The position numbers and the translations under genes are program-made. From assembly GCA_016841565.1 (NCBI GenBank), contig JAENYX010000003.1, positions 14,030-78,029 on the forward strand: a stretch of 64,000 nt of DNA, given 5' to 3'. The notes below the pieces were generated by a model that had not been told where the DNA came from, did no database searches, and saw only the letters and a program-made list of their open reading frames with translations. Positions 4,513 through 36,252 of this stretch are shown piece after piece. The first letter of the stretch is position 1. Every line of letters begins with the position of its first letter. Origin of the DNA: Clostridium thermobutyricum (lineage in GTDB: Bacteria; Bacillota; Clostridia; Ch29).

Positions 4513-4962
4513 AAGGCCACCTCCTCTTAATTATATATAACGCATTTAAAACCTTACATTTCCTAGTGTGTCAAATTCTTCGGGCTTGGCCCTCTTAAAC
4601 GACAGATAAAGGAATGTAATACTATTAGTACGTTGTATATAGATACTACCAGTTTTATGCCGGGATTGTTTTAATTGTTACGAGATTGAGAAAGGTGATG
4701 GGGCAGAAGATGTGTTCTACAAATAGCGACGATTGTTTAAATTATGTCATTAACAGCAAGGGCTTGGGCGGGGGTAGGCAACACAGATTATTAGCATGTC
4801 GAATATACATGAATATTGTAAAAATAAAGGGGTTTATGTGGTTTTGTAGAAATATAAATAATAACCGGCACGAATAAATACACACGAAAAAGAGACAGGC
4901 GTTAGATTTTTTATAAGTAATCTACCGGTAAACGATACAATGTAATGGGGAGGTAATTGGGC

Positions 4963-6930
4963 ATGTCCAAAATAGTATTAATTGCAACCAGCGAAAAAAT
5001 GGCCCAATACGGATATGAAATTAAGAATAAACTACATAACCCGGATGAATTTGAAATATTGGTAGGTTCTATGGACAAAGCTGTTGCTATTGCACGAAGC
5101 CTGAAGGTTTCCGAAGTTGATGTCATAATTTCCAGGGGCACGACCGCAAATATGATTGCCAAAGCTAAAATTGGCATACCTATCATTGAAATACCGGTTT
5201 CGGATGAGGAGATAGTGCGCGTAATTAATGCTGCAAAGGAAATAACCGGCAAAGACAAACCGGTTGTCGGATATATTGGTTTTAATAGAACATATGAAGA
5301 TGTCAGAGTATTTCTGGAGGCTATAGATATAAAAATCCACAAATACGAGGTGCGCAGTGAAAGAGAGATCAGGGAAACCCTGAAGAGGATAAAAAATAGT
5401 GTTGATGTTATAATCGGAGGGTCTTCAACATATACTGCCGCCGGGGAAATGGGATTGAAATGCATTCTTTTGGAAACGTCCCAGGTTTCAATAAATAATA
5501 CATTGAAAAATGCAAGAGAGCTGCAAAGGGCAATAAAGCATGAAAAAAAAGAATTAGCCGAAAAGAATATCATTATTAATTCCGTAAGAGACATTATTAT
5601 AAGCGTAGATGCCGCAGGTAATATTGTAATGTTTAATACCTCGGCGGAAAACGCCACCGGCTATAAAGCAAAAGATGTGTTATCAAAATGCACCTATAAA
5701 ATTTTCGACTTCATAGACAAAGATATCATCGACCTGGCGTTATCTGATGATGACAGTATTTCAGGCAGAATTGTAGAGCTGAATGGTAAAAAGTTTGCAA
5801 TGAATCTATACCCTATTACTACAAAAAAGGATAAATTCGGGGTTGTAATTACCATGCAGGGAGTTGAAGAATTACAAAGCATTGAAGCGACTGTAAGAAA
5901 GGGCCTTTACCCGAAGGGGAATACTGCAAAATATAATTTTAAGGATATTCTTGGCCAATCAAAAGAAATCAAAGAAACCATACAGATAGGCAAGAGCTTT
6001 GCCAATATGAAGTCCAATGTGCTTATTATTGGAGAAACAGGTACAGGCAAAGAGTTATTTGCCCAAAGTATTCACAATGCGAGCGAAAGAAGAAACGGTC
6101 CCTTTATCGCGGTAAACTGCGGGGCAATCCCAAAGGAACTTATGGAGAGTGAACTGTTCGGCTACGTTGAAGGCTCATTTTCGGGGGCCAGAAAAGGAGG
6201 GAAAATAGGGCTTTTCGAACTGGCTCACAATGGCACTATTTTTTTGGACGAGATATCGGAATTGGACAATAGTGGCCAGGTAAGGCTTTTGAGGGTTATA
6301 CAGGAAAGTCAGGTAAGACGTATCGGCGGTGCTTCCGTAATTCCCATTAATGTAAGGATTATTGCGGCTTCCAATACCAACCTGAATAAAATGGTGAAAA
6401 CAAATGCTTTCAGAAAGGACCTGTTTTACAGGCTGAATGTTTTGATACTCAATATTCCTGCTTTGAGAAACAGGAACGGGGATATATCATACTTAACCGA
6501 ATGTTTCATAGACAAATATAACAAGGTATTTAATAAGAAATTCAAGATGCTGCCCGAAGCCCTGGACGAAATGGAGAAGTTTGCCTGGGACGGCAATGTA
6601 AGGCAACTGGAAAACTTTTGCGAGAGGATTGTTGCTATTACAAATAAAGACTTGATAGACAGAGCTACCATAAGAAGGCAAATTCATGACAGTTTCTATT
6701 TTCTTGAGGATTCAGGCAGCGATGGCTTAACCATGGAATCATATGGAGAAACCGTTCGCAATGAAAATGCAAATCAGAAAATTCTACTGGGCGGTAAAAC
6801 AATCTGCTGCAGTGATATAGCAAATCTTTTAAAAACGTATAATGGCAATAAAAGCAGGGTGGCAAAAGAGCTGCAAATAAGCAGAACCACACTGCTAAAA
6901 TACATTAAACTACTAAATCTTGATGCATAG
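4963..6930 (+). CDS. sigma-54-dependent transcriptional activator with a PrpR-type N-terminal sensor domain, a PAS domain, an AAA+ sigma-54 interaction domain and a C-terminal HTH
   Basis: The N-terminal ~190 aa resemble the propionate-regulator (PrpR_N) fold (ISRGTTANMIAK...IIGGSSTYTAAGEMGL). The AAA+ domain has GETGTGKE (Walker A) and the GAFTGA-like loop ESELFGYVEGSFSGA. ATG 4963 follows a GGGGAGG RBS. Confidence 0.85.
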   Translation: MSKIVLIATSEKMAQYGYEIKNKLHNPDEFEILVGSMDKAVAIARSLKVSEVDVIISRGTTANMIAKAKIGIPIIEIPVSDEEIVRVINAAKEITGKDKPVVGYIGFNRTYEDVRVFLEAIDIKIHKYEVRSEREIRETLKRIKNSVDVIIGGSSTYTAAGEMGLKCILLETSQVSINNTLKNARELQRAIKHEKKELAEKNIIINSVRDIIISVDAAGNIVMFNTSAENATGYKAKDVLSKCTYKIFDFIDKDIIDLALSDDDSISGRIVELNGKKFAMNLYPITTKKDKFGVVITMQGVEELQSIEATVRKGLYPKGNTAKYNFKDILGQSKEIKETIQIGKSFANMKSNVLIIGETGTGKELFAQSIHNASERRNGPFIAVNCGAIPKELMESELFGYVEGSFSGARKGGKIGLFELAHNGTIFLDEISELDNSGQVRLLRVIQESQVRRIGGASVIPINVRIIAASNTNLNKMVKTNAFRKDLFYRLNVLILNIPALRNRNGDISYLTECFIDKYNKVFNKKFKMLPEALDEMEKFAWDGNVRQLENFCERIVAITNKDLIDRATIRRQIHDSFYFLEDSGSDGLTMESYGETVRNENANQKILLGGKTICCSDIANLLKTYNGNKSRVAKELQISRTTLLKYIKLLNLDA

Positions 6931-7229
6931 AAAGCATTGATATATTGTGAAACATATAGGCTTAACGGTTTGAGCATAACTTATTAAGGAGTGGAACTAA
7001 TATCTACTCTTTTTTATATTCTTGTTTTTGCCTATGACGACAAAAAAAACGGCCAGGCAATGTACAAAAAAATATACATGGTTGTACATGTTGTCCAAAT
7101 AGGTGAACATGTCAATGTATATAGCTTTAGTATTAGATAACCCCGGAAAAATATCAGTATAAAGCTCTCCCTGAGATGGCAAGGGCCGGCAACCGGTAAA
7201 TATATTTACCCGGGACACCATGAAGACAT

Positions 7230-7245
7230 TGGTATCGTTATTGCA
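7230..7245 (+). promoter_or_regulatory. candidate sigma-54 (-24/-12) promoter: TGGTAT-N5-TTGCA
   Basis: GG (7231-7232) and GC (7243-7244) sit at the canonical 11-nt offset, ~110 nt upstream of the first operon gene (7355) and directly downstream of a sigma-54 activator gene. A near-palindrome CCGGTAAATATATTTACCCGG lies at 7193-7213. Confidence 0.55.
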
Positions 7246-7354
7246 TATTAAAGAAATGACATGACGGTTAAGCACACAATTCATTAGTTGGATATAGTTG
7301 GCCGGCCATGGACTATCAAGAATATAAGTTTAGTGAAAAAGGAGTGTTGATGGC

Positions 7355-8236
7355 ATGAAAATTGGCTTCATCGGACTAGGCCAGATGGGAAAGCATATGG
7401 CAATGAATATGATTAAGAGCAAAGCAGAGATTGTTGTAAATGATGTTAGAACAGACAGTTTCGCAGAGTTTGAAAAAGCAGGAGCCAAAGCGACCTCCAG
7501 CCTTAGGGAGGTTGCCGGGAATGAACTAATTTTTCTCAGCCTGCCCAACAGCCAGATTGTAGAAAAAGTGGTACTGGGCAAAGATGGGATAATAAATGAT
7601 TTGAAAAAAGGGCAGACCGTTGTGGACCTAAGTACCATTACATACAACACCACAACAGAAATTGCCGACAGGCTGCGTGCGGTAGGGGTTGATTTTATGG
7701 ATGCACCGGTATCCGGCATGGAAGCAAGGGCAGCAGACGGAACCCTTACGGTAATGTGCGGCGGCAAAAAAGAAGTATTTGAAAGAGTAAAGCCGTTTCT
7801 GGAGTATATAGGCAACAAAATACTCTATATGGGAGAAAACGGCAGCGGACAATTGACCAAATTAATCAATCAGTTATTATTCGACATAAATGTAGCAGCC
7901 CTTGCCGAAATTTTACCGATGTCGGTTAAAATGGGGCTTGACCCGGGCAAAATTGAACAGGTGGTTAACAGTGGAACGGGCAGGAGTTATGCTTCGGAGT
8001 TCTTCATACCGCGTATTAAAAAGGGAGATTTTACCCAGGGTTATTCAATGAATAACGCATACAAGGATTTGGTGAGTGCTGCGGAACTATCTGCAAAGCA
8101 CGGTATTCCGATGCCGGTGCTGCATGCAGCGACAGTCACCTATCAGATGGCTCTTTTAAAAGGATACGGAGACAAAGATAAGGGAGCAATGATTAGGGTT
8201 TTTGAAGATTTGCTGGATGCTTCCTTTAGAAGCTAA
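7355..8236 (+). CDS. NAD(P)-dependent 3-hydroxyacid dehydrogenase, HIBADH family (tartronate-semialdehyde reductase / 3-hydroxyisobutyrate dehydrogenase-like)
   Basis: N-terminal Rossmann motif MKIGFIGLGQMGKHMA and a 6-phosphogluconate-dehydrogenase-like NAD-binding fold. AAAGGAG RBS. Confidence 0.8.
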   Translation: MKIGFIGLGQMGKHMAMNMIKSKAEIVVNDVRTDSFAEFEKAGAKATSSLREVAGNELIFLSLPNSQIVEKVVLGKDGIINDLKKGQTVVDLSTITYNTTTEIADRLRAVGVDFMDAPVSGMEARAADGTLTVMCGGKKEVFERVKPFLEYIGNKILYMGENGSGQLTKLINQLLFDINVAALAEILPMSVKMGLDPGKIEQVVNSGTGRSYASEFFIPRIKKGDFTQGYSMNNAYKDLVSAAELSAKHGIPMPVLHAATVTYQMALLKGYGDKDKGAMIRVFEDLLDASFRS

Positions 8237-8272
8237 AACAAATACGCAGAGATTGGATGGAGGGCTGTCAAA

Positions 8273-9922
8273 GTGACTAACAGTAAGACAGAAATGATTA
8301 CCGAAGCTTATTACATGGGGTTAATGAGTGCGGTGGGTTATCGCAAAAAGGATTTACAGAAACCAATTATAGGAGTGGTCAATTCCTGGAATGATATTAA
8401 TCCTGGTCATAAGCCGCTTGCCCAGTTGGCAGGCTATGTAAAAGAAGGAATTTGGGCAAATGGAGGTACCCCCGCCGAGTTTGTTGTCCCCGCTCCCTGT
8501 GATGGAATTGCCCAGGGCGAAGGTATGCACTATATACTGCCCCAGAGAGATTTGATTGCCGTATCGATTGAAGCAATGGTAAAGTCCAACGGGTTTGACG
8601 GGCTGGTTTTTCTAGGTTCGTGCGATAAAATCATCCCCGGCATGTTAATGGCAGCAGCCCGGCTCAATCTGCCGTCTATTTTCCTGACGGCCGGTACAAT
8701 GCTTCCTTACAAAGAGCGCAATAAGGAGTACGTCACATGCGACCTTAAAGAGGCAATAGGCAAGCGCAATAATGAGGAGATTGACGAAAATACATTCGAA
8801 CACTGGAAAAAGTATATGTGTTTCTCGGAAGGAACATGCTCCATGTATGGTACGGCGAATACCATGGGGGCATTTCTGGAGGCCACGGGGGTTGCACCTT
8901 TTGGGACATCAACAATGCTGTTTTGTGAAGCCGACAAGGTGAGACAGGCACGGGAAACGGGGGAACGCATAGTTGACCTTGTCCGGGAAGGAAGGGTGTT
9001 TTCCGATTTCCTCAATGATGCTTCTCTAAAAAATGGGATTCGCCTTATATCTGCCACAGGCGGTTCAACAAACGCTGTATTACATATTATGGCACTTTCC
9101 CAGGCAATGAAGTCCAAATTAACTCTAAAAGAGTTTGATGAAATCCAGGCATCGGTTCCGGTTATTGCTAAATTCAAACCGTCATCGGATTATAATATCA
9201 GTGACTATCATCAGGCCGGCGGGGTGCCTGCTGTCCTGCATACAATCAGGGAATTCCTTAATACCGATACCACCCTTGTTACCGGCGGAAACCTCGGATC
9301 ATATCTGGATAATTATAAGTATACGATAGACAGAAACGTGATCAGCTCTATTGAGAATGCATACGAAGAAAACGGCTGTTTTTCAATCCTATATGGGAAT
9401 CTGGCACCGAATGGAGCGGTTGTAAAGAAAAGTGGGGTAGCCGTTGAGATGCGCCGGCATGTAGGACCCGCCGTTGTCTTTGATTCAGAGGAAGAGGTTC
9501 GCGAGTATCTCCTGAAAAAAACGGTTGAACCGGGTTCGGTTCTTGTAATCCGGTATGAAGGACCCAAGGGCGGGCCAGGCATGAGGGAATTGTCAATTCC
9601 AGCCGCTATGCTAGTAGGTATGGGACTGCATAAGTCTGTTGCGATGATTACGGATGGGCGTTTTTCCGGAGCTACAAGGGGTCCCTGTGTTGGACATATT
9701 GCGCCGGAAGCGTGGGAGGGAGGTCCGATTGCCGTTGTCAAGAATGGTGATCTGATTGAAATAGATTTGGAAAACAAAAAACTGGAACTGAAAGTTCCGG
9801 CGGGCGAAATCGAGGAGCGGAAAAAAGGGATTATAAAACCCGAAAGACATTACCCGGGTATCCTTTCTACATACCAGCAAGGAGTAAAGGGAGCTGATAA
9901 AGGAGCCCCGTGGTTTTACTAA
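8273..9922 (+). CDS. IlvD/EDD family dehydratase (dihydroxy-acid / sugar-acid dehydratase)
   Basis: Fe-S cluster motif [10 protein letters not shown]...[14 protein letters not shown] and the C-terminal [19 protein letters not shown] signature of the family. GTG start with a GGATGGAGGG RBS. Confidence 0.85.
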
Positions 9923-10093
9923 ACAACAGAGAATTCAACTGTTGCATTCCGATAATAGACCAAATACAGATAGCTTAGGGTGCAGACTTTAGGCTTAAGG
10001 GGGTGAAAAAAGGGCTTTGAAGGTATAATAATTGGCTGTATTGCGAAGGTTCTCGGTTTAAGGACTTCTACTAAAATAAGAGGAGGTTTACAA

Positions 10094-11071
10094 ATGAAAA
10101 TTAAAGGTATTAAGACATCTTGTATTCTGGCGTTGGTTGCGGTTCTGGTTATTTCAATTGTTGGCTGTTCCCAGCCGGCGAATAACGCAGGTGCGCCCCG
10201 TACCAATTTTTCTGTAATGAGTGCCGCACCCGGAGGTAACTGGTATAATATGTCGGGAGGACTGGCCAGTCTGCTGACTGAAAAGATTGAAGGGGTTACC
10301 TTTTCCTTAGAAGCAACAGGCGGTTCGGTGGAAAATGCCCGTCGCTTAATAGCCAACGAATCGGATTTAGCTCCGATATACTCATCACACCTGTACGAAG
10401 CTTGCAAAGGCGGCGTGGGCGTGTCGGAAGGCCTGCCGTCCAGTGATGCTCCAACCGTATTGTGTCAGATATACGATAGTTCACACTATTTTGTGACATT
10501 AAAAGGGTCGGGTATTACATGTATGCAGGACCTGCAAGGGAAAACCGTGGCAGTGGGACCGGCGGGCTCGGGTACCACTGATAACTCCCTCCGCGTGCTG
10601 GACGTACTGGGTATTGAAGTGAATGAAGTTGAATGTTCCTATGGCGATGCTGCCAGGCAGCTTCAGGACGGTAAAATTGATGCCCTGGGTCAGGGAGGAC
10701 ATCCTGCAAGCGGAATAATGGAATTGGCTGCAACTCAGGATATTTTGATCATTCCTTTCAGCGACGAAGAGCTGGACCAGATTGTAGAGTTAGCTCCTTA
10801 CTTCTTTAAAGGGGAAATTCCTGCCGATACGTATAACGGCCAGGACCAAGCTGTTCCCGTGTTCTGCCTAAACGTTTACCTGGCTGCTCATAAGGATATG
10901 CCGGAAGACGTTGTTTATAGTATTCTGGAAGTACTGTTCAGTGAAGATGGTCAAGAATACTTATCCGCAGTTCATCCTCAGTGGGCAAACGTAAAGGACA
11001 ATCCGGAAGCGGTAAAAGCGCTGGAGGTACCGTACCATCCCGGAGCAGCAAAATACTGGGCAGAACATTAA
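10094..11071 (+). CDS. TAXI-family TRAP transporter solute-binding lipoprotein (copy 1)
   Basis: Lipoprotein signal ending at the lipobox IVGCS, then the TAXI (immunogenic-protein-like) SBP fold. It is followed by a fused TRAP permease. Confidence 0.8.
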   Translation: MKIKGIKTSCILALVAVLVISIVGCSQPANNAGAPRTNFSVMSAAPGGNWYNMSGGLASLLTEKIEGVTFSLEATGGSVENARRLIANESDLAPIYSSHLYEACKGGVGVSEGLPSSDAPTVLCQIYDSSHYFVTLKGSGITCMQDLQGKTVAVGPAGSGTTDNSLRVLDVLGIEVNEVECSYGDAARQLQDGKIDALGQGGHPASGIMELAATQDILIIPFSDEELDQIVELAPYFFKGEIPADTYNGQDQAVPVFCLNVYLAAHKDMPEDVVYSILEVLFSEDGQEYLSAVHPQWANVKDNPEAVKALEVPYHPGAAKYWAEH

Positions 11072-11149
11072 GACTAATATTCACTTGTGTGGTTCCGGGG
11101 AGAGCTGTCGGCTTTTCCCCGGGTACCATTATACTGAGGAGGTAAAAAA

Positions 11150-13021
11150 GTGCGAAAGCTTGATAAGAGACTGGAAATAATCGTATCAATACTAGCTTCT
11201 GCCTTCGCCCTGTTCTACTTGTATACTTCCGGTTTTGGTATATTCTCCACCCAAACCAACCGGGGAGTTTTTATATTGTTTACTTTCGTTCTTTGCACAA
11301 TACTATACCCGACATATAAAAAGTCTCCATACAATAAGACTTTATATGCATTTGATATAGTTGTTGTTATACTGGCATCATGCTCAATTATTTACTGGAT
11401 GCTGGAGTATGCGGATTATGCCCGCTATCGTGTCGGCCTGCCAAACCAATGGGATACGTTTTGGGGTATAATTTTAATCTTAGTCAGTCTGGAGATAACT
11501 AGAAGGGTTATGGGCATTGTACTGCCCATTTTGGGAGCTTTATTCGTGGCTCAATTGTTTATCGGTCCCTATCTCCCAGGTATATTTGCCCATAGGGGTA
11601 TGAGTTTGCTTAGAATTGTAGAATTCCTTTTCTCAAATACAGAAGGAATTTTCGGCACAATAGCCTCGGTATTTGCCACCTACATCATGCCCTTTCTCAT
11701 ATTTGGTGCATTTCTGCAGAAATCCGGCGGAGGGGACTTTTTTATGGATTTCTCCAAGGCCGCTGCCGGGCGTATATCCGGAGGGCCAGCCCTGATAGCT
11801 ATAATCGGAAGTTCTATTTTTGGCAGTATCTCAGGCAGCGCTGTTGCCAATGTGGTGGCTACCGGCACTTTCACCATACCCATGATGAAAAAGGTTGGGT
11901 ACAAGTCGGAATTTGCCGGTGCGGTTGAGGCGTCGGCATCCACCGGAGGGCAGTTTATGCCGCCTATTATGGGAGCAGCAGCTTTTATTCTTGCTACTTT
12001 TACTGAAACGCCCTATGCCACCATAGTCATTATGGCAGTGGTCCCGGCTGTTCTTTATTACTTGTCAGTTTTACTTTCGGTGTATTTCAGGGCCCGTAAG
12101 AATAATATTTATGGTTTAAATCCCGAGGAAATTCCCAAGATTACAGATGTTCTTAAAAAAGGATGGTATTTTGGATTTACGCTGGCCTTGGCGGTAGTTC
12201 TGATTGTAGCCGGCTTCTCACCGCCGCGTGTTGCGTTTTGGTGCACGATAATAGTAATAGCCTTTAGTATGATTGACAGGTCAAACAGGTTCACCTTTAC
12301 AAAGCTTTTTAACACATTGGAAGCAGCAGGGAAAAGTGCTTTAACTGTGGGTGCAACAGCAGGGACTCTTGGCCTTATCATGGGGGGGATAACCCTGGCA
12401 GGATTAGGCGCAAAGTTTTCTCATGCCCTTATTTCTTTGGCCGGTGGAAACATATTTCTGACAATTGTATTGATAAGTTTTATAGCAGTGATTGTAGGAA
12501 TGGGGCTGCCGACAACGGCTTCATATATTGTCATGTCTATTCTTGCCGCTCCTTCGTTAATACAGTTGGGGGTACCGGCAGTTCAGGCACATATGCTTTG
12601 CTTCTGGCTGTCGGTGGTTTCAAATGTTACACCCCCTGTTTGCATTGCTGCATATGCGGCGGCAAGCATATCGGGCGGTGATCCCATGAAAACGGGAATG
12701 CACGCCTGTACACTATCGCTGTTTATATTCCTGATGCCCTTCGCATTTGTTTATTCTCCGCAAATAATGCTGATTGGGCAACTTCCGGATATACTTATTG
12801 TTATTGCATGCTTTACTCTTGCAGCATTTTCAATCTCAGCAATGACTCAGGGATGGTTCATAAAAAACCTTTCAGGTATGGAAAGAATCATCTTTGGAGC
12901 AGCTTCCATTTTATTGATATATCCAAACAGGATTATGGATGTTATAGGAATTCTCATCTTTGTCCTGATGGTATTTACACTCTATAAACAAGCCGGAAAA
13001 ATCCGGCGTATGGCAGTCTAA
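11150..13021 (+). CDS. TRAP transporter fused 4TM/12TM permease (TAXI-associated, copy 1)
   Basis: 623 aa polytopic membrane protein. It is a paralog of the 31432 and 53690 genes; all three share the motif GTFTIPxMKKxGYxxxFAGAVEAxxSxGGQ. GTG start with a GGAGG RBS. Confidence 0.85.
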   Translation: MRKLDKRLEIIVSILASAFALFYLYTSGFGIFSTQTNRGVFILFTFVLCTILYPTYKKSPYNKTLYAFDIVVVILASCSIIYWMLEYADYARYRVGLPNQWDTFWGIILILVSLEITRRVMGIVLPILGALFVAQLFIGPYLPGIFAHRGMSLLRIVEFLFSNTEGIFGTIASVFATYIMPFLIFGAFLQKSGGGDFFMDFSKAAAGRISGGPALIAIIGSSIFGSISGSAVANVVATGTFTIPMMKKVGYKSEFAGAVEASASTGGQFMPPIMGAAAFILATFTETPYATIVIMAVVPAVLYYLSVLLSVYFRARKNNIYGLNPEEIPKITDVLKKGWYFGFTLALAVVLIVAGFSPPRVAFWCTIIVIAFSMIDRSNRFTFTKLFNTLEAAGKSALTVGATAGTLGLIMGGITLAGLGAKFSHALISLAGGNIFLTIVLISFIAVIVGMGLPTTASYIVMSILAAPSLIQLGVPAVQAHMLCFWLSVVSNVTPPVCIAAYAAASISGGDPMKTGMHACTLSLFIFLMPFAFVYSPQIMLIGQLPDILIVIACFTLAAFSISAMTQGWFIKNLSGMERIIFGAASILLIYPNRIMDVIGILIFVLMVFTLYKQAGKIRRMAV

Positions 13022-13036
13022 AGGGGGCGAAATTGC

Positions 13037-13435
13037 ATGATAAAGGGATTAGGCCACATTGGCATAGCTGTTGAGGATATTGAAAGTATGGTAAAAGCAA
13101 TTTCTAAAGCTATGAATATTGCTGCTCCTGATATTATAGACAACAGCAAGATGAAGACAAAATTTGCGGTGATAGAGTCAAACGGTATTGGTATTGAAAT
13201 CCTGCAGCCATACGGAGAAACGGGTATGCTGCCAGACTATGTCAAAAAAAATGGCAGCGGGATACACCATATATGCTTGTTGACGGATAGCATTAAGGAC
13301 GATATGGAAGCACTGAAGGCCTCGGGGTTTAATTTCCGGCAGCAAAAGCCATCCATAGGGGTCAGAGGAAAGCTAAGAGCCACAACTACAGACGATGCGC
13401 TGTGCGGCATTCCTTTTGAACTATCTGAACCATAA
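13037..13435 (+). CDS. VOC (glyoxalase/bleomycin-resistance/dioxygenase) family protein, methylmalonyl-CoA-epimerase-like
   Basis: 132 aa with GHIGIAVEDIE and later HHICL metal-ligand motifs typical of VOC-fold proteins. Confidence 0.6.
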   Translation: MIKGLGHIGIAVEDIESMVKAISKAMNIAAPDIIDNSKMKTKFAVIESNGIGIEILQPYGETGMLPDYVKKNGSGIHHICLLTDSIKDDMEALKASGFNFRQQKPSIGVRGKLRATTTDDALCGIPFELSEP

Positions 13436-13496
13436 TAGGTTTTTGCAGGGCTAGAATGTAGAAATAATATTAGATAGTTATAAAGGAGAGATCATT

Positions 13497-15371
13497 ATGA
13501 AAGGTGTTTGGAACAAAATGCTTCGGGTTGACCTTACCAATAGAAAGGTCAGCGTACAGGTATTACCTGAAAAGGTCCTGGAAAACTTTATAGGAGGAGC
13601 GGGGCTGGGAGCATGGGTACTTTGGAATGAGGTTCCGTCAGAAGTAAAAGCATTGAGCCCGGAAAACCGCATAGTTTTTGCCACCGGACCGTTTCAGGGC
13701 AACCGTCAGACGGGTTCGGCCAAATGGACCATTGTATCCAAGTCACCCGCATTTGAGGCCAATGCCACGTCCTGTGTTACCTGGAAATGGGGCATTGAGT
13801 TGAAAAAGACCGGTTACGATGCTCTGGTGGTGCATGGTAAGGCGGATGCTCCCGTGTATATAAAAATTGACGATGGTGAGGTTACAGTATGTGATGCCGG
13901 GAACCTTTGGGGAAAAGATGGTTACTCAACGGAGGACTCTATCCAGGATGAGATTGGCAAGGACTTTGCCGTATCGTGTATTGGCCCGGCAGGAGAGCAG
14001 TTGGCTAAGTACGCATGCATAATAACGGGGAAATGTTCATTCGCCGGCAGGGGAGGGCTTGGAGCCGTTATGGGGTCCAAAAACCTGAAGGCGGTAGCGG
14101 TCCGCGGCTCAAAAACGGTAGAGTACGCTAACCCGGAGCAGGTGAAGGCGTTAAATAAAAAAGTTAACCGTTTGGTATTGGAAACCGACCAGGCAAAACC
14201 CTACGAGCAGCGTTCAAGGGACCACGGAACCTCGAGGGCAACTCTAAGACATGCAAGGGTGGGAAACCTGCCCGTTAAAAACTGGCAGCTGGATACATAC
14301 GAAGGATACGAAAAACTGGGGGCACCATGTTATGCCCAAACCCTGAATGTCAAACCCCATCCCTGTCCAAGCTGTACCCTTGCATGCAAGAACTATGTAA
14401 ATGTCCCGGAAGGCCCCTATTCATTTGAAGGCGAAGGGCCTGAGTACGAGTCCTATGCCATGATGGGCCATAACCTAATGATTACCGACTTAGAAGCAGT
14501 GGCCTATGCCGGGCACATGGCCAATATTTACGGGATGGACACCATATCCCTGGGGGCGTGCCTGGCGTGGGCGTATGAATCCTTTGAAAAAGGCGTGCTG
14601 ACCAGGGAGGATACATACGGACTGGAACTGACGTGGGGTAATGCCGATGCCATGGTTAAGCTGACGGAAAAGATATTGAAAAGGGAAGAGGGACTGGGTT
14701 ACATATTAGGAGAAGGCCTTATGGAAGCCGTCCGGCATTATGGTAAGGGGTCGGAGGCCTGGGCAGTATTTTGCAATGGACTGGAAATGCCTGCCCATGA
14801 CCCAAGGTCCGCCTTTGTGGCAGGGCTGTCCTATCTTACGGGGGCGTCCTGCGGGGGCAACCATGAGAAGGGAAACCCCCAGCATATATTTGTGGCCAAT
14901 ATGCGGCTACCTGAATTTGGCATAGGGGATCAGATAGAGGATGAAGAGCGGCATTCGTGGGAGAATGCGTCAAAGTATACAGTTACATTCCAGCATTATG
15001 CAAATATCATTGATTCTATGGTGCACTGCAAATTCGTGGATAGGTCCGGTTATACCATGACCCACATGCTTGACACGTATAATGCTATTACCGGCTTAAA
15101 CTGGGACTTCGAAGACTTGTTAAGGGCAGGAGAACGGATATTTACCCTTCAGCGTCTTCTGCAGCTGCGTTACGGTAGGACAATAGAACACAATAAATCA
15201 TTTCCGCAGCGTATTATGGAGCCCAAACCGGACGGATATGTGGCGGGGGTTGTACCGGAGGGCATTTTGGATGCGGTGGATGACTATTACAGGTACAGAG
15301 GCTGGGATGAAAACGGGGTACCAACCCAAGGCAAAATCAGGGAAATGGGCCTGGAGGAATTTATTAAGTAA
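13497..15371 (+). CDS. tungsten-containing aldehyde:ferredoxin oxidoreductase (AOR family)
   Basis: From my recollection of Pyrococcus AOR the alignment runs end to end (N-terminal ...RVDLT...GGAGLGAW..., AGRGGLGAVMGSKNLKAV, and the [4Fe-4S] Cys cluster CPSCTLACKNY). 624 aa, the family-typical length. Confidence 0.85.
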   Translation: MKGVWNKMLRVDLTNRKVSVQVLPEKVLENFIGGAGLGAWVLWNEVPSEVKALSPENRIVFATGPFQGNRQTGSAKWTIVSKSPAFEANATSCVTWKWGIELKKTGYDALVVHGKADAPVYIKIDDGEVTVCDAGNLWGKDGYSTEDSIQDEIGKDFAVSCIGPAGEQLAKYACIITGKCSFAGRGGLGAVMGSKNLKAVAVRGSKTVEYANPEQVKALNKKVNRLVLETDQAKPYEQRSRDHGTSRATLRHARVGNLPVKNWQLDTYEGYEKLGAPCYAQTLNVKPHPCPSCTLACKNYVNVPEGPYSFEGEGPEYESYAMMGHNLMITDLEAVAYAGHMANIYGMDTISLGACLAWAYESFEKGVLTREDTYGLELTWGNADAMVKLTEKILKREEGLGYILGEGLMEAVRHYGKGSEAWAVFCNGLEMPAHDPRSAFVAGLSYLTGASCGGNHEKGNPQHIFVANMRLPEFGIGDQIEDEERHSWENASKYTVTFQHYANIIDSMVHCKFVDRSGYTMTHMLDTYNAITGLNWDFEDLLRAGERIFTLQRLLQLRYGRTIEHNKSFPQRIMEPKPDGYVAGVVPEGILDAVDDYYRYRGWDENGVPTQGKIREMGLEEFIK

Positions 15372-15415
15372 TTCACTAAATTAAGCTTTGGATATGAGGG
15401 AGGGGAGGATGTACC

Positions 15416-15679
15416 ATGAACAGGGTAAAAGTAAAGACCTTTGGTTTTCCCGAGATCGCTGAGACTATGGGTGGTACCAGCGTAGAAATATATATTGAAG
15501 GTAATACTTTCGGAGCCTTGCTGGATGCAATCGAGGGAAAATACGGGGAGGACGCAAGAAAAGCTCTTTTAGTCCAGGTAATGAAAAACGGTAAGGAATG
15601 GATTGACAAAGAAGACATGACCATTGCCGTTGAAGATGGCGACACCTTCTCTTTCTTTACAATGATTGGTGGAGGGTGA
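15416..15679 (+). CDS. MoaD/ThiS-family sulfur-carrier-like protein (C-terminal GG)
   Basis: 87 aa ending ...FFTMIGGG, the beta-grasp C-terminal Gly-Gly signature. It lies immediately downstream of the AOR gene, mirroring the AOR plus MoaD-like (cmo) pairing known from archaeal aor loci. Confidence 0.6.
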   Translation: MNRVKVKTFGFPEIAETMGGTSVEIYIEGNTFGALLDAIEGKYGEDARKALLVQVMKNGKEWIDKEDMTIAVEDGDTFSFFTMIGGG

Positions 15680-15755
15680 TAAGCCGGACAGGACGGTATG
15701 GGAAGGATCTATCCTGGGTCCATAATAAAGAACTTTGTTGAGAGGTATACCATTG

Positions 15756-16919
15756 ATGAAGAATAATCGTTGGCTTTTGTTTTGTATTGCTACCAGTTTT
15801 TTCTGGTTTTCTCTGTATGGTTATGTTCCTATGCTGTCACCCTATTCTGAATCCATAGGTGCCAGTCATAAAATGGTTGGGCTAATACTGGGAGCCTATG
15901 GGTTTAGTCAGATAATATTTAGGATCCCTATAGGTATTTGGTCTGACAGAATATGCAGAAGAAAGCCTTTTATGATAGCCGGTCTGATTATTTCGGTAAT
16001 AAGCGGTCTGGGTATTTGGGCTTTCCCCAGTCCATGGCCCATTTTATACTTTCGGTTTTTAGCCGGAATCACAGCTGCCACATGGGCTATTGTAATTGTT
16101 TTGTTTACTGGGTATTTCCCGGAACATGAAACCTCCAAGGCGGTTGGCATAATTAATTCGTTCTATGCATCGGGGCAGGTTGCGGCCATGCTTCTTTGCG
16201 GAATTGCTGCCGAGTATTTTGGGTTAAGAGCACCTTTTCTGATTGCTTCTGCAGGAGCTTTGACCGGACTGATGCTGGCTGTAGGAATAAAGGAGAAGAG
16301 CGCAGTCAGAAGTCAACCAATAAAAATGTCGGAACTATTTGAAGTAGTGAAGGACAAGGATTTTATTTTTGTTTCAATACTTGCAATTCTGGCTCAGTTG
16401 ATTATTTATGCTACGGTATACGGTTTTACTCCGGTCTATGCCGCTGCCATCGGTGCTGCAAACTATCAATTAAGTTTGTTGACTGTTATTTCGATTATAC
16501 CGATGATTGTAGTCCCTTTATTTAGCGGTTCTTCTTTGTTTAAAAAGTACAGTGAAAGAATAATTATTGCAGCCGGTTTTTTCGTTGCCGCAATTTCTTG
16601 CGCATTAATGCCGCTTATCGGGAGCATTGCTTTATTATACATAACCCAGGCGGGTATCGGTTTGGGAAGGGGAGTGGTTTTCCCACTTCTTATGGCATTA
16701 AGTATCAGAAAAGTCCAACCGAATAAACGGGCTACGACTATGGGGGTTTTCCAGGCACTCTACGGGCTGGGCATGTCCATGGGCCCTGTTATTGTTGGCT
16801 GGTTAAGTGACATTGCGGGACTTGCCTGGGGATTTTGGGCAATATCCTGCTTCGCTGGTGTTGGCGGCTTATTAGCCTTGCGTTACATGAAAAACGAGAA
16901 TCTATCAAAAAACTTCTAG
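15756..16919 (+). CDS. MFS transporter
   Basis: 12-TM profile with the MFS loop motif GIWSDRICRRKPF between TM2 and TM3. ATG 15756 follows GAGG; the TTG at 15735 in the track is an extension. Confidence 0.8.
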   Translation: MKNNRWLLFCIATSFFWFSLYGYVPMLSPYSESIGASHKMVGLILGAYGFSQIIFRIPIGIWSDRICRRKPFMIAGLIISVISGLGIWAFPSPWPILYFRFLAGITAATWAIVIVLFTGYFPEHETSKAVGIINSFYASGQVAAMLLCGIAAEYFGLRAPFLIASAGALTGLMLAVGIKEKSAVRSQPIKMSELFEVVKDKDFIFVSILAILAQLIIYATVYGFTPVYAAAIGAANYQLSLLTVISIIPMIVVPLFSGSSLFKKYSERIIIAAGFFVAAISCALMPLIGSIALLYITQAGIGLGRGVVFPLLMALSIRKVQPNKRATTMGVFQALYGLGMSMGPVIVGWLSDIAGLAWGFWAISCFAGVGGLLALRYMKNENLSKNF

Positions 16920-16924: not shown

Positions 16925-16949
16925 CTGCCCCCGGTTATAACCGGAGGCA
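16925..16949 (-). terminator. rho-independent terminator of the DUF2935 gene (hairpin CCGGTTATAACCGG core plus run of T on the minus strand)
   Basis: On the minus strand the sequence reads TGCCTCCGGTTATAACCGGGGGCAG followed by TTTT, immediately after the stop at 16989. Confidence 0.55.
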
Positions 16950-18252: not shown

Positions 18253-19026
18253 ATGAAAATACACGTGCTGGTTGACAATCACGCTTCAAGGGATTTTTCT
18301 GCCGAATGGGGATTGTCGCTTTTTATTGAGAGCAGTAAGAACCTGTTGTTTGATTTTGGAAGCAGCGATCTATATATCAAAAATGCGGCCAAGCTGGGAA
18401 TTGACATCATGTCGGCGGACTGCTTTGTGTTAAGCCACGGGCACTGGGATCATGGAAACGGGCTGGAGCATATATCAGGGAAAAGGCTTATATGCCACCC
18501 CGAAGCGTTCATTAAGAGATACAGGAAGGATGGCGGTTATATAGGGCTGACTTTTGGTATTGAAGAGGCAAAAAGGAAATTTGAACTGGAATTGGCCCGC
18601 GAACCGTACATGATTGATGAGAACATAATATTCCTTGGCCAGATACCCAGCGTGGTGGATTTTGAGTCGAAAAGTACCAATTTTGTTAAGGAAGACGGCA
18701 GCATGGACCTTGTTATGGATGATTCGGCCCTTGTATTTAAAACCGGGGAAGGCCTTGTTATCATAAGCGGATGTGCCCATTCGGGCATATGCAACACTGT
18801 TGAATATGCAAAACAGGTAAGCGGCATTGACAGGGTTTTTGCGGTACTGGGAGGGTTTCATCTTAAAGGCGGTGACCGACTAACCGAAAGGACCATTGAC
18901 TATTTGATGAAATCAAATATAGAAAGTATAAGAACCAGTCACTGCACTCAGTTCGATGCCCTGGTGCAGTTTGCCAATGCTTTCGGCAGCAAGCCGTTTG
19001 CCTCGGGTATGACAATAGAGCTGTAA
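18253..19026 (+). CDS. MBL-fold metallo-hydrolase
   Basis: HxHxDH motif (SHGHWDHGNGL) plus downstream His/Asp ligands (GCAHSGICN). Confidence 0.75.
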   Translation: MKIHVLVDNHASRDFSAEWGLSLFIESSKNLLFDFGSSDLYIKNAAKLGIDIMSADCFVLSHGHWDHGNGLEHISGKRLICHPEAFIKRYRKDGGYIGLTFGIEEAKRKFELELAREPYMIDENIIFLGQIPSVVDFESKSTNFVKEDGSMDLVMDDSALVFKTGEGLVIISGCAHSGICNTVEYAKQVSGIDRVFAVLGGFHLKGGDRLTERTIDYLMKSNIESIRTSHCTQFDALVQFANAFGSKPFASGMTIEL

Positions 19027-19074
19027 AGTGAGGAAATATATAATTGATTCAAGGACAGCTGCAAGACTTCATTA

Positions 19075-19104
19075 TTGCATTTCCGTAATATGTAAATATA
19101 TAAT
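19075..19104 (+). promoter_or_regulatory. candidate sigma-A promoter of tnaA (TTGCAT-N18-TATAAT)
   Basis: -35 at 19075-19080 and -10 at 19099-19104, about 100 nt upstream of the tnaA start. Confidence 0.4.
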
Positions 19105-19135
19105 ATAGTTAGTCCTGATTATTGAGACATTCGGG

Positions 19136-19186
19136 TGGCTCCCATCCGGGCACCGCCGGGGTGGGAGCCAAGCAGCCAAATTTTTT
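19136..19186 (+). promoter_or_regulatory. GC-rich leader hairpin (TGGCTCCCA...TGGGAGCCA with an internal CCGG/CCGG stem) followed by TTTTTT in the tnaA 5' UTR; attenuator/terminator-like
   Basis: 9-bp outer stem at 19136-19144 / 19162-19170 with a structured 17-nt loop, then a T6 run at 19181-19186, 18 nt before the tnaA ATG. Confidence 0.4.
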
Positions 19187-19204
19187 AATAATAGGGGGGT
19201 AATT

Positions 19205-20578
19205 ATGAGAAAAGCAGAGCCGTTCAAGATTAAGATGGTGGAGTCAATCAACCTGATTCCGAGGGAGGAAAGGGAAAAAGCCCTAGTAAGGGCGGGGTAC
19301 AATGTATTCTCGCTGAGGGCGGAAGAAATCTACATCGACCTTCTTACCGACAGCGGAACCGGTGCAATGAGCGACAGGCAGTGGGCCGGTATGATGATGG
19401 GGGACGAGACCTATGCCGGCAGCAGGAGTTTTTTTAAACTGGAGCAGTCGGCAAAGGACATCTTCGGCTACAAGTATATAGTCCCTGCACACCAGGGCAG
19501 GGGCGCCGAGCAGGTCCTGTTCCCCACACTTGTTAAAAAGGGACAGGATGTGCTGGGGAACATGCATTTTGATACCACTATGGCGCATATAGAGCTAAGC
19601 GGCGGCAGAGCTGTAAACCTGGTGCACGAGAGGGCCTATGATACGCAGACACCGCATTCTTTCAAGGGGGATGTTGACCTTGAAAAGCTGGAGGGCTACA
19701 TTAAGGAAAGAGGCGTGGAAAACATAGCCTTCATGATTATCACCATTACCTGCAACAGTGCCGGAGGGCAGCCGGTAAGCATGGCCAACATCAAGGCCAC
19801 CAGCGAGATATGTAAAAAGTACGGGATAAAGGTATTCCTGGATGCCGCAAGGTATGCAGAGAACGCTTATTTCATCAAGACAAGGGAAGCGGGCTACCAT
19901 GATAAGCCCATACGGGAGATCGTTCGGGAAATGTTCTCCTATGCCGAGGGCTTTACTATGAGCGCCAAGAAGGACGGTCTTGTAAACATAGGCGGGCTTA
20001 TAGGAATTAAGGATGATGAGGATATATATCTGGCCTGCAGGTCTATGGTGGTACCCTTTGAAGGCTTCCCCACCTACGGCGGCTTATCGGGCAGAGACCT
20101 GGAAGCTCTTGCGGTAGGGCTGAAGGAAGGCGTTGAGGAATCATACCTTGAATACAGGATTGGCCAGGTTGCATACCTGGGGCAGAGGCTTATCGAGGGC
20201 GGCGTCCCCATCCAAACGCCCACCGGAGGCCATGCGGTATTTGTGGATGCAAAGAAGATGCTACCTCACATCCCATACCACCAGTTTCCGGCGGCGGCCC
20301 TTGCCAACGCTCTATACCTGGAAGCGGGGGTAAGGGGAGTGGAGATAGGCTCATTCCTGCTGGGCAGGGACGCCGAAACCGGCCAGCAGCTTGAATCGCC
20401 GATGGAGCTTCTGAGGCTCACCATACCCCGCAGGGTGTATACCGACAGGCACATGGACTATATTGCCGATGCGCTTATTGCGATTAATAAGAGGGCCGAC
20501 GCCATAAAGGGTGTTGAAGTGGTATATGAGCCAAAGGTGCTGAGGCACTTTACTGCAAAACTAAAGCCAGCGGAATAA
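19205..20578 (+). CDS. tnaA: tryptophanase (tryptophan indole-lyase; beta-eliminating lyase family, closely related to tyrosine phenol-lyase)
   Basis: Full-length colinearity with my recollection of E. coli TnaA, including the PLP-lysine region [12 protein letters not shown] and the C-terminus [14 protein letters not shown]. Tyrosine phenol-lyase cannot be fully excluded without a tree. Confidence 0.8.
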
Positions 20579-20586
20579 ATGTAAGG

Positions 20587-20636
20587 GAGCATCGCAGGAC
20601 CGGTTGAACTGGGGCGGTGCTCTTTTCTTATTTTGT
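20587..20636 (+). terminator. rho-independent terminator of tnaA
   Basis: Stem GAGCATCGC / GCGGTGCTC (one G-U pair) with a 17-nt loop, followed by TTTTCTTATTTTG. Confidence 0.55.
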
Positions 20637-20663
20637 TTTGCATGCAAGCAAATGGAGCAAGCA

Positions 20664-20710
20664 CTAAACACAAATGAACACGTCGATATGACGTGTTCAT
20701 TTGTGTTTAG
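20664..20710. repeat. 47-bp perfect palindrome (21-bp arms CTAAACACAAATGAACACGTC / GACGTGTTCATTTGTGTTTAG, 5-nt spacer)
   Basis: Exact reverse complementarity verified base by base. It lies between the tnaA terminator and the GntR-family gene. Confidence 0.9.
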
Positions 20711-20782
20711 CAGTGAAGCTGCGGCAAGCAAAAAAGAGTGGAAATATGAAAAATTATGTAGTATAATGTAGTCAAATACAAT

Positions 20783-20816
20783 TGCATACAAGGTGCATAC
20801 ATATTGTATACAATAT
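20783..20816. promoter_or_regulatory. candidate FadR-type operator: two direct TGCATACA copies plus the 16-bp perfect palindrome ATATTGTATACAATAT, just upstream of the regulator start; a TATAAT box at 20762-20767
   Basis: The palindrome at 20801-20816 fits the GntR/FadR-type TnGT-N-ACnA operator logic and overlaps the regulator's own 5' region, which suggests autoregulation. Confidence 0.5.
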
Positions 20817-20835
20817 ATTTGGAGGAAGTGTTGAA

Positions 20836-21486: not shown

Positions 21487-21579
21487 AAATTTTATCCGCA
21501 TACTTTAGCAATTTAAAGAGCAGATGAGTACCGGCCGTATTATACATTGAGTTTATCTGAATCAGAAAGGGTGGTAATC

Positions 21580-22767: not shown

Positions 22768-22791
22768 CCTTAGTACAATCCGTTTAAAAAT

Positions 22792-22812
22792 CAATAATGA
22801 TAATCCAATTAT
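22792..22812. promoter_or_regulatory. palindrome AATGATAAT-cca-ATTATCATT upstream of tctC
   Basis: 9-bp perfect arms, 35 bp before the tctC start. Candidate operator. Confidence 0.35.
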
Positions 22813-22845
22813 CATTTTGATTATAAAAAAAAGGAGGTTTAAATC

Positions 22846-23823: not shown

Positions 23824-23883
23824 CTGAATATTCCTATTGAAGGCCATACGGCCTTCAATAGGCCTTTATAAGGAGGTGACAGA

Positions 23884-24327: not shown

Positions 24328-24343
24328 ACAGGGAGGTGTTAAT

Positions 24344-26748: not shown

Positions 26749-26764
26749 AGGTGATGACACTTAA

Positions 26765-28389: not shown

Positions 28390-28454
28390 TTTCAGCCGCA
28401 GGGTATAATGCTCATGGATTTGGACTATATATGCTGATAAAGTGAGGCGATGGT

Positions 28455-35092: not shown

Positions 35093-35094
35093 CA

Positions 35095-36246: not shown

Positions 36247-36252
36247 TTCATC

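Follow-up and report, generated by a model that had tools for sequence, protein, structure and literature searches.

In Escherichia coli, glyoxylate and galactarate are degraded through the products of gcl-hyi-glxR-glxK and of garD and garPLRK, routes in which a HIBADH-family tartronate-semialdehyde reductase makes D-glycerate that is then passed to a kinase. For L-threonate and D-erythronate, Zhang et al. in 2016 reportedly described a catabolic route that runs through LtnD, OtnI, OtnK and OtnC. An Ltn3D variant of threonate catabolism has also been published (PMC12994016). Genes for aldehyde:ferredoxin oxidoreductase (AOR) belong to a predicted AorR/sigma-54-dependent regulon in Clostridium ljungdahlii, C. 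autoethanogenum and relatives (PMC6615313) and to aorABCDE of Aromatoleum aromaticum (PMC6365974), and enzymes of the IlvD/EDD family act in the archaeal non-phosphorylative Entner-Doudoroff pathway and in a synthetic "minimal glycolysis" that uses the dihydroxy-acid dehydratase (DHAD) of S. solfataricus (PMC6982167). Here we analyse a nine-gene cluster at positions 4957-16919 of a 64,000-nucleotide stretch of Clostridium thermobutyricum DNA (GenBank assembly GCA_016841565.1, contig JAENYX010000003.1, positions 14,030 to 78,029; the whole stretch is called the window below), in which a sigma-54 activator gene is followed by genes for a HIBADH-family dehydrogenase, a DHAD-like IlvD/EDD dehydratase, a TAXI-TRAP importer, a VOC protein, an AOR, a MoaD-like protein and an MFS transporter. 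The gene families are ordinary, and their recurring combination points to a short acid-sugar or hydroxy-acid route without a described pathway.

We read the cluster, with a probability of roughly 0.55, as an operon by which an anaerobic, spore-forming member of the Clostridia breaks down a small (C3-C4) polyhydroxy carboxylic acid, its expression being induced by the substrate. The PrpR_N-PAS activator would bind the acid or a metabolite of it and act from TGWACA repeats on sigma-54 RNA polymerase at 7229-7245, and the acid would be imported by the TAXI lipoprotein together with the fused TRAP permease. A 2,3-dihydroxy acid would be dehydrated to a 2-oxo acid by the DHAD-like enzyme. With NAD(P), the HIBADH-family enzyme would turn hydroxymethyl into aldehyde (yielding a "semialdehyde") or the reverse, and the AOR would interconvert that aldehyde and a carboxylate with ferredoxin. 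The VOC protein would epimerise, isomerise or tautomerise the aldehyde, and the MoaD-like protein would serve in maturation of the pterin cofactor. From gene content we infer the substrate, each reaction and its direction; a preliminary description of this DNA had rightly presented both substrate and route in that way.

The cluster resembles the AorR system, likewise clostridial, in that a TTGG-N-TTGC promoter beside the gene for a sigma-54 enhancer-binding protein drives expression of a single-subunit AOR. In the AorR system the target is aor alone and acetate is reduced to acetaldehyde, whereas the AOR gene of the window comes seventh in an operon with genes for an importer, a dehydrogenase and also a dehydratase; the window activator moreover has a PrpR_N sensor and a GSFSGA loop, and the window AOR belongs to a different clade. 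With A. aromaticum the cluster shares MoaD-like genes encoded with the AOR (aorD and aorE, presumed to act in maturation of the tungsten cofactor). The A. aromaticum enzyme (AOR_Aa) is NAD-linked, with Fe-S and FAD subunits, whereas genes for such partner subunits are missing beside the window AOR, for which ferredoxin is the presumed partner. The preliminary description had called a sigma-54-regulated bacterial pathway of this kind with a TRAP importer unfamiliar to textbooks. For the combination of enzymes this stands, as it is undescribed, whereas sigma-54 control of aor, as a prediction (PMC6615313), and MoaD-like neighbours (PMC6365974) had both already been published. The literature that we searched did not mention this cluster, the pairing of a HIBADH-family with a DHAD-like enzyme, an association of that pair with AOR, DUF6282 or a VOC partner for AORs.

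To the E. coli routes the likeness lies in Hyi-like, HpcH-aldolase and GarD-like neighbours found in loci related to the window. The window differs from them in having a DHAD-like dehydratase in the place of the kinase, in having no carboligase or aldolase, and in a HIBADH-family protein that misses the GarR/GlxR cut-offs. Like the threonate/erythronate system, it would put a HIBADH-family dehydrogenase to work on a C4 acid sugar, and related loci have Hyi-like neighbours and, in one metagenome contig (L001), a DUF1537-type kinase gene. The window itself has neither kinase nor decarboxylase, and a dehydratase with an AOR would make the route non-phosphorylative, ferredoxin-linked and undescribed.

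The preliminary description had drawn its analogy with the archaeal non-phosphorylative route, and this analogy proved weak. The features in common are an IlvD/EDD enzyme acting on non-phosphorylated hydroxy acids and an aldehyde oxidised without substrate-level phosphorylation, set against the absence of an aldolase, a bacterial mesophilic host, TRAP uptake and the presence of HIBADH-family and VOC enzymes in the window. Taken literally, the analogy would make the cluster a bacterial copy of the Entner-Doudoroff branch in which a sugar acid is dehydrated and cleaved to pyruvate and glyceraldehyde and the aldehyde is oxidised by AOR. Glyceraldehyde oxidation of the AOR type is established in archaea (PMC2063504), and DHDPS-family aldolases do occur in some loci of the dehydratase clade that have no HIBADH-family gene. 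We nevertheless regard such a copy as highly improbable: the 2-keto-3-deoxy-acid aldolase, the sugar or lactone dehydrogenase and the glycerate kinase are all missing from the window cluster (4957-16919) and from its closest relative (L002), the dehydratase is DHAD-like and not gluconate/xylonate-like, the importer is one for carboxylates, and the scheme has no role for the HIBADH-family enzyme.

The two enzymes at the centre of the catabolic reading are encoded by the first structural genes. The first (7355-8236, + strand) is a HIBADH-family beta-hydroxyacid dehydrogenase (NAD_binding_2/NAD_binding_11) by Pfam and NCBIfam profiles. Tartronate-semialdehyde reductase (TSR; GarR/GlxR) models score highest on it, though far below their cut-offs (GarR PRK11559 244.5 against 397; TSR 221.8 against 340.75), followed by the HIBADH (194 against 292) and L-threonate dehydrogenase (193 against 350) models, so that no cut-off is reached; its closest solved structures are 3cky (2-hydroxymethylglutarate dehydrogenase) first, with 1vpd (a TSR) near the top. 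The second (8273-9922, + strand) encodes an IlvD/EDD-family dehydratase (ILVD_EDD_N and ILV_EDD_C; Pfam, NCBIfam) that falls just under both DHAD cut-offs (TIGR00110, 592.2 against 618.15; NF002068, 609.4 against 644) and whose closest solved relatives are DHADs. Its motifs PCDG, SCDK, GTCS and GRFSG, which we take to be the Fe-S and Mg ligand motifs of the IlvD/EDD family, are invariant across the clade alignment and place it in that superfamily.

To place the dehydratase among its relatives, we combined a protein search, look-ups and an alignment-based metagenome scan, which gave 82 further loci; the neighbour analysis covered 84 clade loci in total, and among the neighbour clusters of this clade, only the top ones were identified, with a Pfam check. 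The protein search returned very many matches at 70-76% identity under the source name "dihydroxy-acid dehydratase". Among the recurrent neighbours thus identified at the 84 loci, no gene of ilv/leu biosynthesis (ilvB/ilvC) was found, the exception being a biosynthetic-type threonine dehydratase gene beside the HIBADH-IlvD pair in L001. The 47 clade loci without a HIBADH-family gene have neighbours such as LarA-like proteins, DHDPS-family aldolases, GarD/UxaA-like dehydratases, Tct transporters and LysR or GntR regulators. Because the identified neighbours are catabolic and branched-chain biosynthesis genes are not among them, we regard the clade as catabolic despite its database name; an assignment of the 70-76% matches to housekeeping IlvD was considered and rejected on the same catabolic contexts.

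The DHAD likeness also invites the proposal that the enzyme is a true dihydroxy-acid dehydratase in an operon for a branched-chain hydroxy acid (2,3-dihydroxyisovalerate, or one related to 3-hydroxyisobutyrate or pantoate) that ends in 2-oxoisovalerate, with the HIBADH-family enzyme and the AOR oxidising a methyl-branched hydroxy acid via a semialdehyde. The profile scores just under cut-off, the solved DHAD relatives, the public name of clade members and the threonine dehydratase gene in L001 would all agree with it, as would the PanB-like genes that follow VOC-AOR-MoaD in six loci of the AOR clade and a VOC protein whose nearest models are those of methylmalonyl-CoA epimerase. We consider it improbable, given that the identified neighbours at the 84 loci lack ilvB, ilvC and leu genes and are of acid-sugar or organic-acid type, and that no coherent route joins all four enzymes. 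The PanB-like neighbours also suggested pantoate catabolism, but pantoate lacks a 2,3-diol, and for the window this idea was rejected on that ground.

The dehydrogenase and the dehydratase form a conserved pair. A HIBADH-family gene (50-94% identical to that of the window at the protein level) ends just before the dehydratase gene in 37 loci including the window, which collapse into 27 groups at 95% IlvD identity. Carriers of the pair are found among the Tepidanaerobacteraceae and the Dethiobacteria. By group, the neighbours of the pair are DUF6282 (15), TAXI with TRAP (7), a GntR regulator (7), AOR (6) and TctC/TctA (5), and further neighbours include a Hyi/OtnI-like TIM barrel with Ldh_2, 2-Hacid_dh, an HpcH aldolase, a ComB-like phosphatase, a GcvT-like protein and a beta-propeller lactonase. 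The TAXI and TRAP proteins beside the pair in L091 and L126 are 46-49% and 54-58% identical to those of the window. DUF6282, a protein of about 293 residues with an HxH motif and an amidohydrolase-like character, is the commonest third partner of the pair (loci with it include L088, L091, L092, L117-L120, L125, L137-L139, L146, L150, L155, L165 and L167) and is absent from the window. DHPS or sulfolactate chemistry was also considered, on a YihU-like match, ComB-like and TauE neighbours and a Tyr-to-His exchange in the AOR as in the sulfonate-active WOR5; the case is thin, such neighbours occurring in few loci and none of them in the window.

These neighbourhoods bear on which concrete route the operon would serve. 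In a C3 route, the HIBADH-family enzyme would be a GarR/GlxR-type tartronate-semialdehyde reductase and the DHAD-like enzyme a D-glycerate dehydratase, so that glycerate would reach pyruvate without phosphorylation; the VOC protein and the AOR would reduce imported tartronate to tartronate semialdehyde, or the VOC protein would be a non-homologous hydroxypyruvate/tartronate-semialdehyde isomerase. The pair alone would then provide a complete route to pyruvate, which fits the 21 of 27 groups that have no AOR, and the GarR and TSR models, the 1vpd structure and the neighbours that recall gcl-hyi-glxR and garPLRK/garD (Hyi-like TIM barrel, 2-Hacid_dh, HpcH aldolase, GarD-like) point the same way. 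Glycerate is racemised by some LarA homologs (PMC11770544) and weakly dehydrated by S. solfataricus DHAD (PMC6982167), and the alpha-proton or enediol transfer typical of VOC enzymes would suit a 2-hydroxy-3-oxo acid. The equivalog cut-offs are, however, all missed, and a dehydratase specific for glycerate is not known from nature (PMC6982167); the AOR would need to run against an unfavourable potential at a cost of four electrons from tartronate to pyruvate, and a Hyi-like with a HIBADH-family gene is equally a signature of L-threonate catabolism (LtnD-OtnI). We hold the C3 route only as a tentative possibility.

We favour, among concrete routes, an oxidative C4 one, itself a tentative choice, in which threonate or erythronate would be converted to 4-hydroxy-2-oxobutanoate by the dehydratase, to 2,4-dioxobutanoate by the HIBADH-family enzyme and to oxaloacetate by the AOR; in a variant, oxidation to tartrate would come first and dehydration second. 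Such a route would yield NAD(P)H and reduced ferredoxin and, like the C3 route, would give all enzymes of the operon a part. It has in its favour that AORs are usually oxidative, that reduced ferredoxin is gained and that the substrates are common, and IlvD/EDD enzymes convert threonate to 4-hydroxy-2-oxobutanoate in vitro (PMC10079672).

The preliminary description had proposed a functional link between dehydratase and AOR, and repeated co-occurrence at other loci now backs it. The pair stands with an AOR in six of the 27 groups, and the AORs are of two lineages, one in the window and L002 and the other in L088, L127, L139 and L155; in L001 both modules lie within about 7 kb. The AORs of the second lineage (632-647 residues) are 29-33% identical to that of the window and are accompanied by a polyferredoxin partner, a ThiS-like gene and a LarA-like gene; ThiS-like and polyferredoxin genes also stand at the contig end of L167. 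Small open reading frames (ORFs) for proteins ending in GG follow the AOR in both lineages. Since the pair occurs beside two unrelated AOR lineages, an aldehyde step is probably part of the pathway in at least some organisms, with the aldehyde either as an intermediate or as the point of entry.

Relatives of the window AOR were collected by protein search, contig look-ups and an alignment-based genome scan, the last of which gave relatives where a scan of genome contigs with the AOR protein alone gave none. This resulted in 56 loci whose AOR has an identity of 46% or more to that of the window, and their neighbouring ORFs were clustered. Among the GTDB representative genomes scanned, a close ortholog was absent, the best match being that of Anoxynatronum buryatiense at 63%. 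The sole near-identical locus is a JGI metagenome contig (L002), which repeats the gene order from activator to MoaD-like protein at 78-93% protein identity. L001 has an AOR 80% identical to that of the window in the order VOC-AOR-AOR-MoaD with an ABC transporter and, about 7 kb further on, HIBADH-family (61%) and IlvD (68%) genes; in this contig (JGI 3300076002) both of these genes, at 18360-20949, and likewise several ABC permease genes are split in two ORFs, probably by sequencing frameshifts rather than as pseudogenes. A. buryatiense and L003/L085 have PCC, ABC transporter, VOC-AOR-MoaD and PanB-like genes, with the dehydratase in none of them, and a PrpR_N activator gene lies near the module in A. 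buryatiense and L003.

Across the 56 loci, Liv-type ABC transporter genes are near the AOR in 37 and a Peripla_BP_6 binding protein gene in 27. VOC relatives are present in 15 loci; in 8 of these the distance to the AOR is at most about 0.5 kb, on its upstream side, and in 12 it is at most about 1.4 kb, upstream or downstream. Other neighbours are a HIBADH-family gene (14 loci), PCC/DUF296 (12), a ThiF-like E1 (11), a Fe-alcohol dehydrogenase directly after the AOR (10), and isochorismatase-like, BKACE, PanB-like and PrpR_N activator genes (6 each), and a GG-ending ThiS-like ORF of about 82 residues stands just after the AOR in at least 13. VOC-AOR-MoaD-like is thus a module in its own right within an uncharacterised AOR clade, usually accompanied by Liv-type ABC transporters. 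Two-step oxidation by an alcohol dehydrogenase and an AOR is established in sulfate reducers, and the frequent Fe-alcohol dehydrogenase and HIBADH-family genes near this clade would fit an analogous alcohol-to-aldehyde-to-acid conversion.

The window cluster consists of two separable modules, HIBADH-IlvD-TAXI-TRAP and VOC-AOR-MoaD, which are fused in the window and in L002. The view of a single cluster in the preliminary description is therefore right in that the genes stand together and needs amending in that there are two modules, each far commoner without the other. A metagenome contig with a closely related upstream half (L089; ENA ERZ2647878, 1-10934) carries the activator, HIBADH-family and IlvD genes at 90-94% identity to the window, followed by genes for Dak2 (DhaL-like) and a DctP-type TRAP binding protein; its IlvD is at least 95% identical to that of L002, and a reductive-dehalogenase homolog precedes the unit. 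With Dak2/DctP at this locus in the place of TAXI-TRAP-VOC-AOR, cargo downstream of the pair is exchangeable between very close relatives.

Turning to the proteins of the second module, the AOR (13497-15371, + strand; 624 residues, AFOR_N and AFOR_C) aligns end to end with the P. furiosus enzyme (PfAOR, 1aor; 339 bits) and is, by eye from the alignment, 34-38% identical to solved AORs. Its C290, C293, C297 and C511 match the 4Fe-4S cluster ligands of PfAOR, and of the four second-shell residues compared (Thr/Glu/Tyr/His, after PMC12096430) three are kept (Thr243, Glu313 and His448 of PfAOR as T245, E318 and H456). The fourth, Tyr427 of PfAOR, is His434 in the window AOR and is invariant as His across the 23 clade members aligned; the same exchange is found in the AOR of C. 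formicoaceticum (AOR_Cf) and in WOR5/ASOR (PMC12096430). Judged by domains, Cys ligands and second shell, the enzyme belongs to the AOR/WOR family and to its aldehyde-oxidising type. As no gene for an Fe-S or flavin subunit is adjacent, a single-subunit, ferredoxin-linked AOR is to be expected.

Upstream of it, the VOC-fold protein (13037-13435, + strand; 132 residues, Glyoxalase_4, Pfam 1e-15) has a weak likeness to glyoxalase I and to methylmalonyl-CoA epimerase (model score 61.5 against a cut-off of 115), with candidate metal ligands H7/E54/H77-78/E128 by sequence reading, His/Glu/His/Glu at the expected places. The ThiS/MoaD-like protein downstream (15416-15679, + strand; 87 residues, C-terminus ...IGGG) gives weak matches with Pfam and NCBIfam (ThiS, 23.5 bits against a cut-off of 22.5; MoaD_arch, 32.5 against 49.5). 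In the first module, the TAXI-family TRAP solute-binding lipoprotein (10094-11071, + strand; TIGR02122, 225 bits against a cut-off of 84) has a lipobox IVGC by sequence reading and the fused DctQM-type permease (11150-13021, + strand) scores 634 bits on TIGR02123 against a cut-off of 321; together they make up a TAXI-TRAP transporter, which takes a carboxylate.

Control of the operon would lie with the activator gene at 4957-6930 (+ strand; likely start ATG 4963), which encodes PrpR_N (1e-36), PAS, Sigma54_activat (PF00158, 1e-66) and HTH_8 (8e-6) domains by Pfam. With a Walker A motif GETGTGK, an AAA+ domain and a C-terminal Fis-type helix-turn-helix, the product is a sigma-54 enhancer-binding protein. 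It resembles PrpR, the activator of propionate catabolism, and PrdR in its domain order (PrpR_N, PAS where present, AAA+, HTH_8) and in a presumed small organic acid ligand. It differs from them in targets unrelated to the methylcitrate cycle or proline reductase and in scores far under all NCBIfam equivalog cut-offs (PrdR, 373 against 795; PrpR TIGR02329, 335 against 499; PRK15424, 320 against 703), so that with the PrpR equivalog it has in common only the type of N-terminal domain. The GAFTGA motif that contacts sigma-54 is near-universal among such activators. It is present in the other two activators of the window, and the activators of the cluster, L002 and L089 have GSFSGA in its place (6145-6162 in the window, residues 397-411); the changes are conservative.

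That a plausible -24/-12 element lies beside this activator gene, as claimed earlier, holds on inspection: TTGGTATCGTTATTGCA is found at 7229-7245 (+ strand), within the 424-nt region between activator and target gene and about 110 nt before the first structural gene starts, with GG at -24, GC at -12 and the correct spacing. Two of its positions deviate from the Clostridiales consensus TTGGCATN5TTGCT (PMC6615313): at -24 it has T for C, and its final base differs. The pattern TTGGYAYN5TTGCW has 2 matches in the 64 kb against 0.17 expected, both intergenic and just downstream of sigma-54 activator genes, and the third activator gene of the window (50646-51998) is followed by CTTGGCACATTAATTGCG, so that all three activator genes have a -24/-12 element downstream. 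This pairing in three of three cases is the strongest indirect argument that the site at 7229 would be functional. The element is kept in the orthologous loci L002 and L089, which adds little because those intergenic regions are 87-90% identical overall. Repeated TGWACA half-sites at 7060-7110 (+ strand), 120-170 nt upstream of -24 and recognised by sequence reading and in the L002/L089 alignments, are candidate upstream activator sites, the motif being a short one. Two blocks, at 7163-7203 and at 7265-7293, are almost invariant across the window, L002 and L089; the first includes the palindrome GCCGGCAACCGGT, a short way before the -24 element, and the second lies in the leader, and an IHF-like site or an attenuator are possibilities for them. 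Searched with Rfam, the window, its conserved leader at 7265-7293 included, gave no match to a riboswitch or to any other RNA family.

The gene content and the tight co-directional arrangement given in the preliminary description agree with our ORF listing and our Pfam and NCBIfam profile searches, which place all nine + strand ORFs and their families as it had them. After the 424 nt behind the activator gene, the intergenic distances are 36, 171, 78, 15, 61, 44 and 55 nt, every start checked has a good ribosome-binding site, and a consensus scan across the operon found no convincing internal terminator. From this arrangement we infer co-transcription, and the genes behind the promoter probably form an operon switched by sigma-54. 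A 10-bp GC-rich hairpin at 16926-16949, between the convergent MFS and DUF2935 genes, is the probable end of the unit; because its T-run lies on the minus-strand side, plus-strand termination there is presumed rather than read directly from the motif. The last gene (15735-16919, + strand; likely start ATG 15756) encodes an MFS transporter (MFS_1) with generic MFS matches only. It starts 55 nt past the MoaD-like gene on the same strand; whether it belongs to the operon, and what it does, is uncertain. L002, the one contig with synteny, stops short of the MFS position, so that comparison covers the genes before it.

The same layout has to be set against an accident of gene order, by which two independent modules would share a promoter without a common intermediate: a HIBADH-IlvD-TAXI-TRAP module, complete in itself, for a hydroxy acid, and a VOC-AOR-MoaD(-MFS) module of general use that detoxifies aldehydes or reduces acids. 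The modules are separate in the great majority of loci, L089 has the activator and pair with Dak2 and DctP genes downstream instead, AOR substrate ranges are generally broad (PMC12096430), and a sigma-70-like match (10003-10032, GTGAAA-18 nt-AATAAT, 9/12), with a TATAAT hexamer at 10025-10030, lies in the 171 nt that separate the dehydratase gene from the TAXI gene. Two facts speak for a common purpose. The pair stands beside an AOR and a MoaD-like gene in six non-redundant groups and two unrelated AOR lineages, and in L001 besides, which is hard to explain without a functional link, and the gap of 15 nt between the TRAP permease and VOC genes suggests that the two halves are co-transcribed. 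We judge an accidental fusion unlikely.

Several points nonetheless weigh against the reading of the cluster as one catabolic operon for a short polyhydroxy acid. Beyond the 21 groups whose HIBADH-IlvD pair has no AOR, most loci of the window's AOR clade have no pair, and because each module mostly occurs without the other, the fusion could be opportunistic. The transporter/VOC/AOR half could have an internal promoter of its own in the sigma-70-like match, and the GSFSGA loop and the T at the -24 C position of the promoter are both deviant, though the two may be co-adapted. Neither concrete route is free of difficulty: the oxidative C4 route leaves loci that have only the pair with an unprocessed aldehyde, and the C3 route requires a reductive AOR and tartronate, a rare compound. 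Since the HIBADH-family and IlvD proteins miss every NCBIfam equivalog cut-off, a specific activity is not transferable by homology; the dehydratase is moreover very DHAD-like and its relative adjoins the threonine dehydratase gene in L001, which would make a branched-chain dihydroxy acid a possible substrate. The role given to the VOC protein is a guess from the chemistry of its relatives and from cupin, 4-OT tautomerase, Hyi-like and LarA-like genes in comparable places elsewhere.

The remainder of the window is rich in clusters for organic-acid uptake and catabolism, with three TAXI-TRAP systems, one Tct system and three sigma-54 activators in all, and GerA-type genes at 33563-37596 indicate a spore-former. 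A second sigma-54 unit (37854-45587) has an activator with two PAS domains (37854-39575), a perfect TTGGCATCAAAATTGCT at 39731 and, downstream, a co-directional operon for a thiolase, CoA-transferase A/B, an SDR protein, a GntP/CitMHS-like permease and a 3-hydroxyacyl-CoA dehydrogenase, which looks like one of the acetoacetate/3-hydroxybutyrate type. The third unit (48459-55642) encodes a sensor kinase with an extracellular SBP_bac_3 domain, a response-regulator-type activator, whose CTTGGCACATTAATTGCG element lies at 52096, and a TAXI-TRAP pair. A cluster at 20782-29225 (GntR, an HMGL-like protein resembling homocitrate or isopropylmalate synthase, TctC/B/A, 2-Hacid_dh, Ldh_2, a hexapeptide transferase and SDR) was left out of the system because its products have only 30-43% identity to the like-named neighbours of HIBADH-IlvD pairs elsewhere. 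A gene of the tryptophanase/tyrosine-phenol-lyase type at 19205-20578 has named relatives only from uncultured Clostridia/Bacillota, and the 257-residue ORF beside it (18253-19026) has no Pfam match.

The regulatory logic of the cluster, in which an activator, a sigma-54 promoter and a catabolic operon follow one another, is standard for Clostridia and does not overturn current understanding. For the dehydratases, the name "dihydroxy-acid dehydratase" on a large clade that stands in catabolic contexts with a conserved dehydrogenase partner is an annotation error that deserves correction, and the clade points to an unassigned pathway of anaerobes. If the enzyme should prove to be a good glycerate or threonate dehydratase, it would offer an activity to cell-free and synthetic pathways that now rely on weak promiscuous enzymes (PMC6982167, PMC10079672). 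More speculatively, the pair with AORs of two lineages might represent an undescribed non-phosphorylative, ferredoxin-linked route by which anaerobes convert short acid sugars to central 2-oxo acids, either from threonate or erythronate to oxaloacetate or from tartronate semialdehyde through glycerate to pyruvate by what would be the first natural dedicated glycerate dehydratase, and the AOR clade with the Tyr-to-His exchange, together with its VOC partner, might be specialised for semialdehydes of 2-substituted 3-oxo acids. For tungsten enzymology, the cluster gives an uncharacterised branch of the AOR/WOR family a physiological context and candidate substrates, along with a constant VOC partner.

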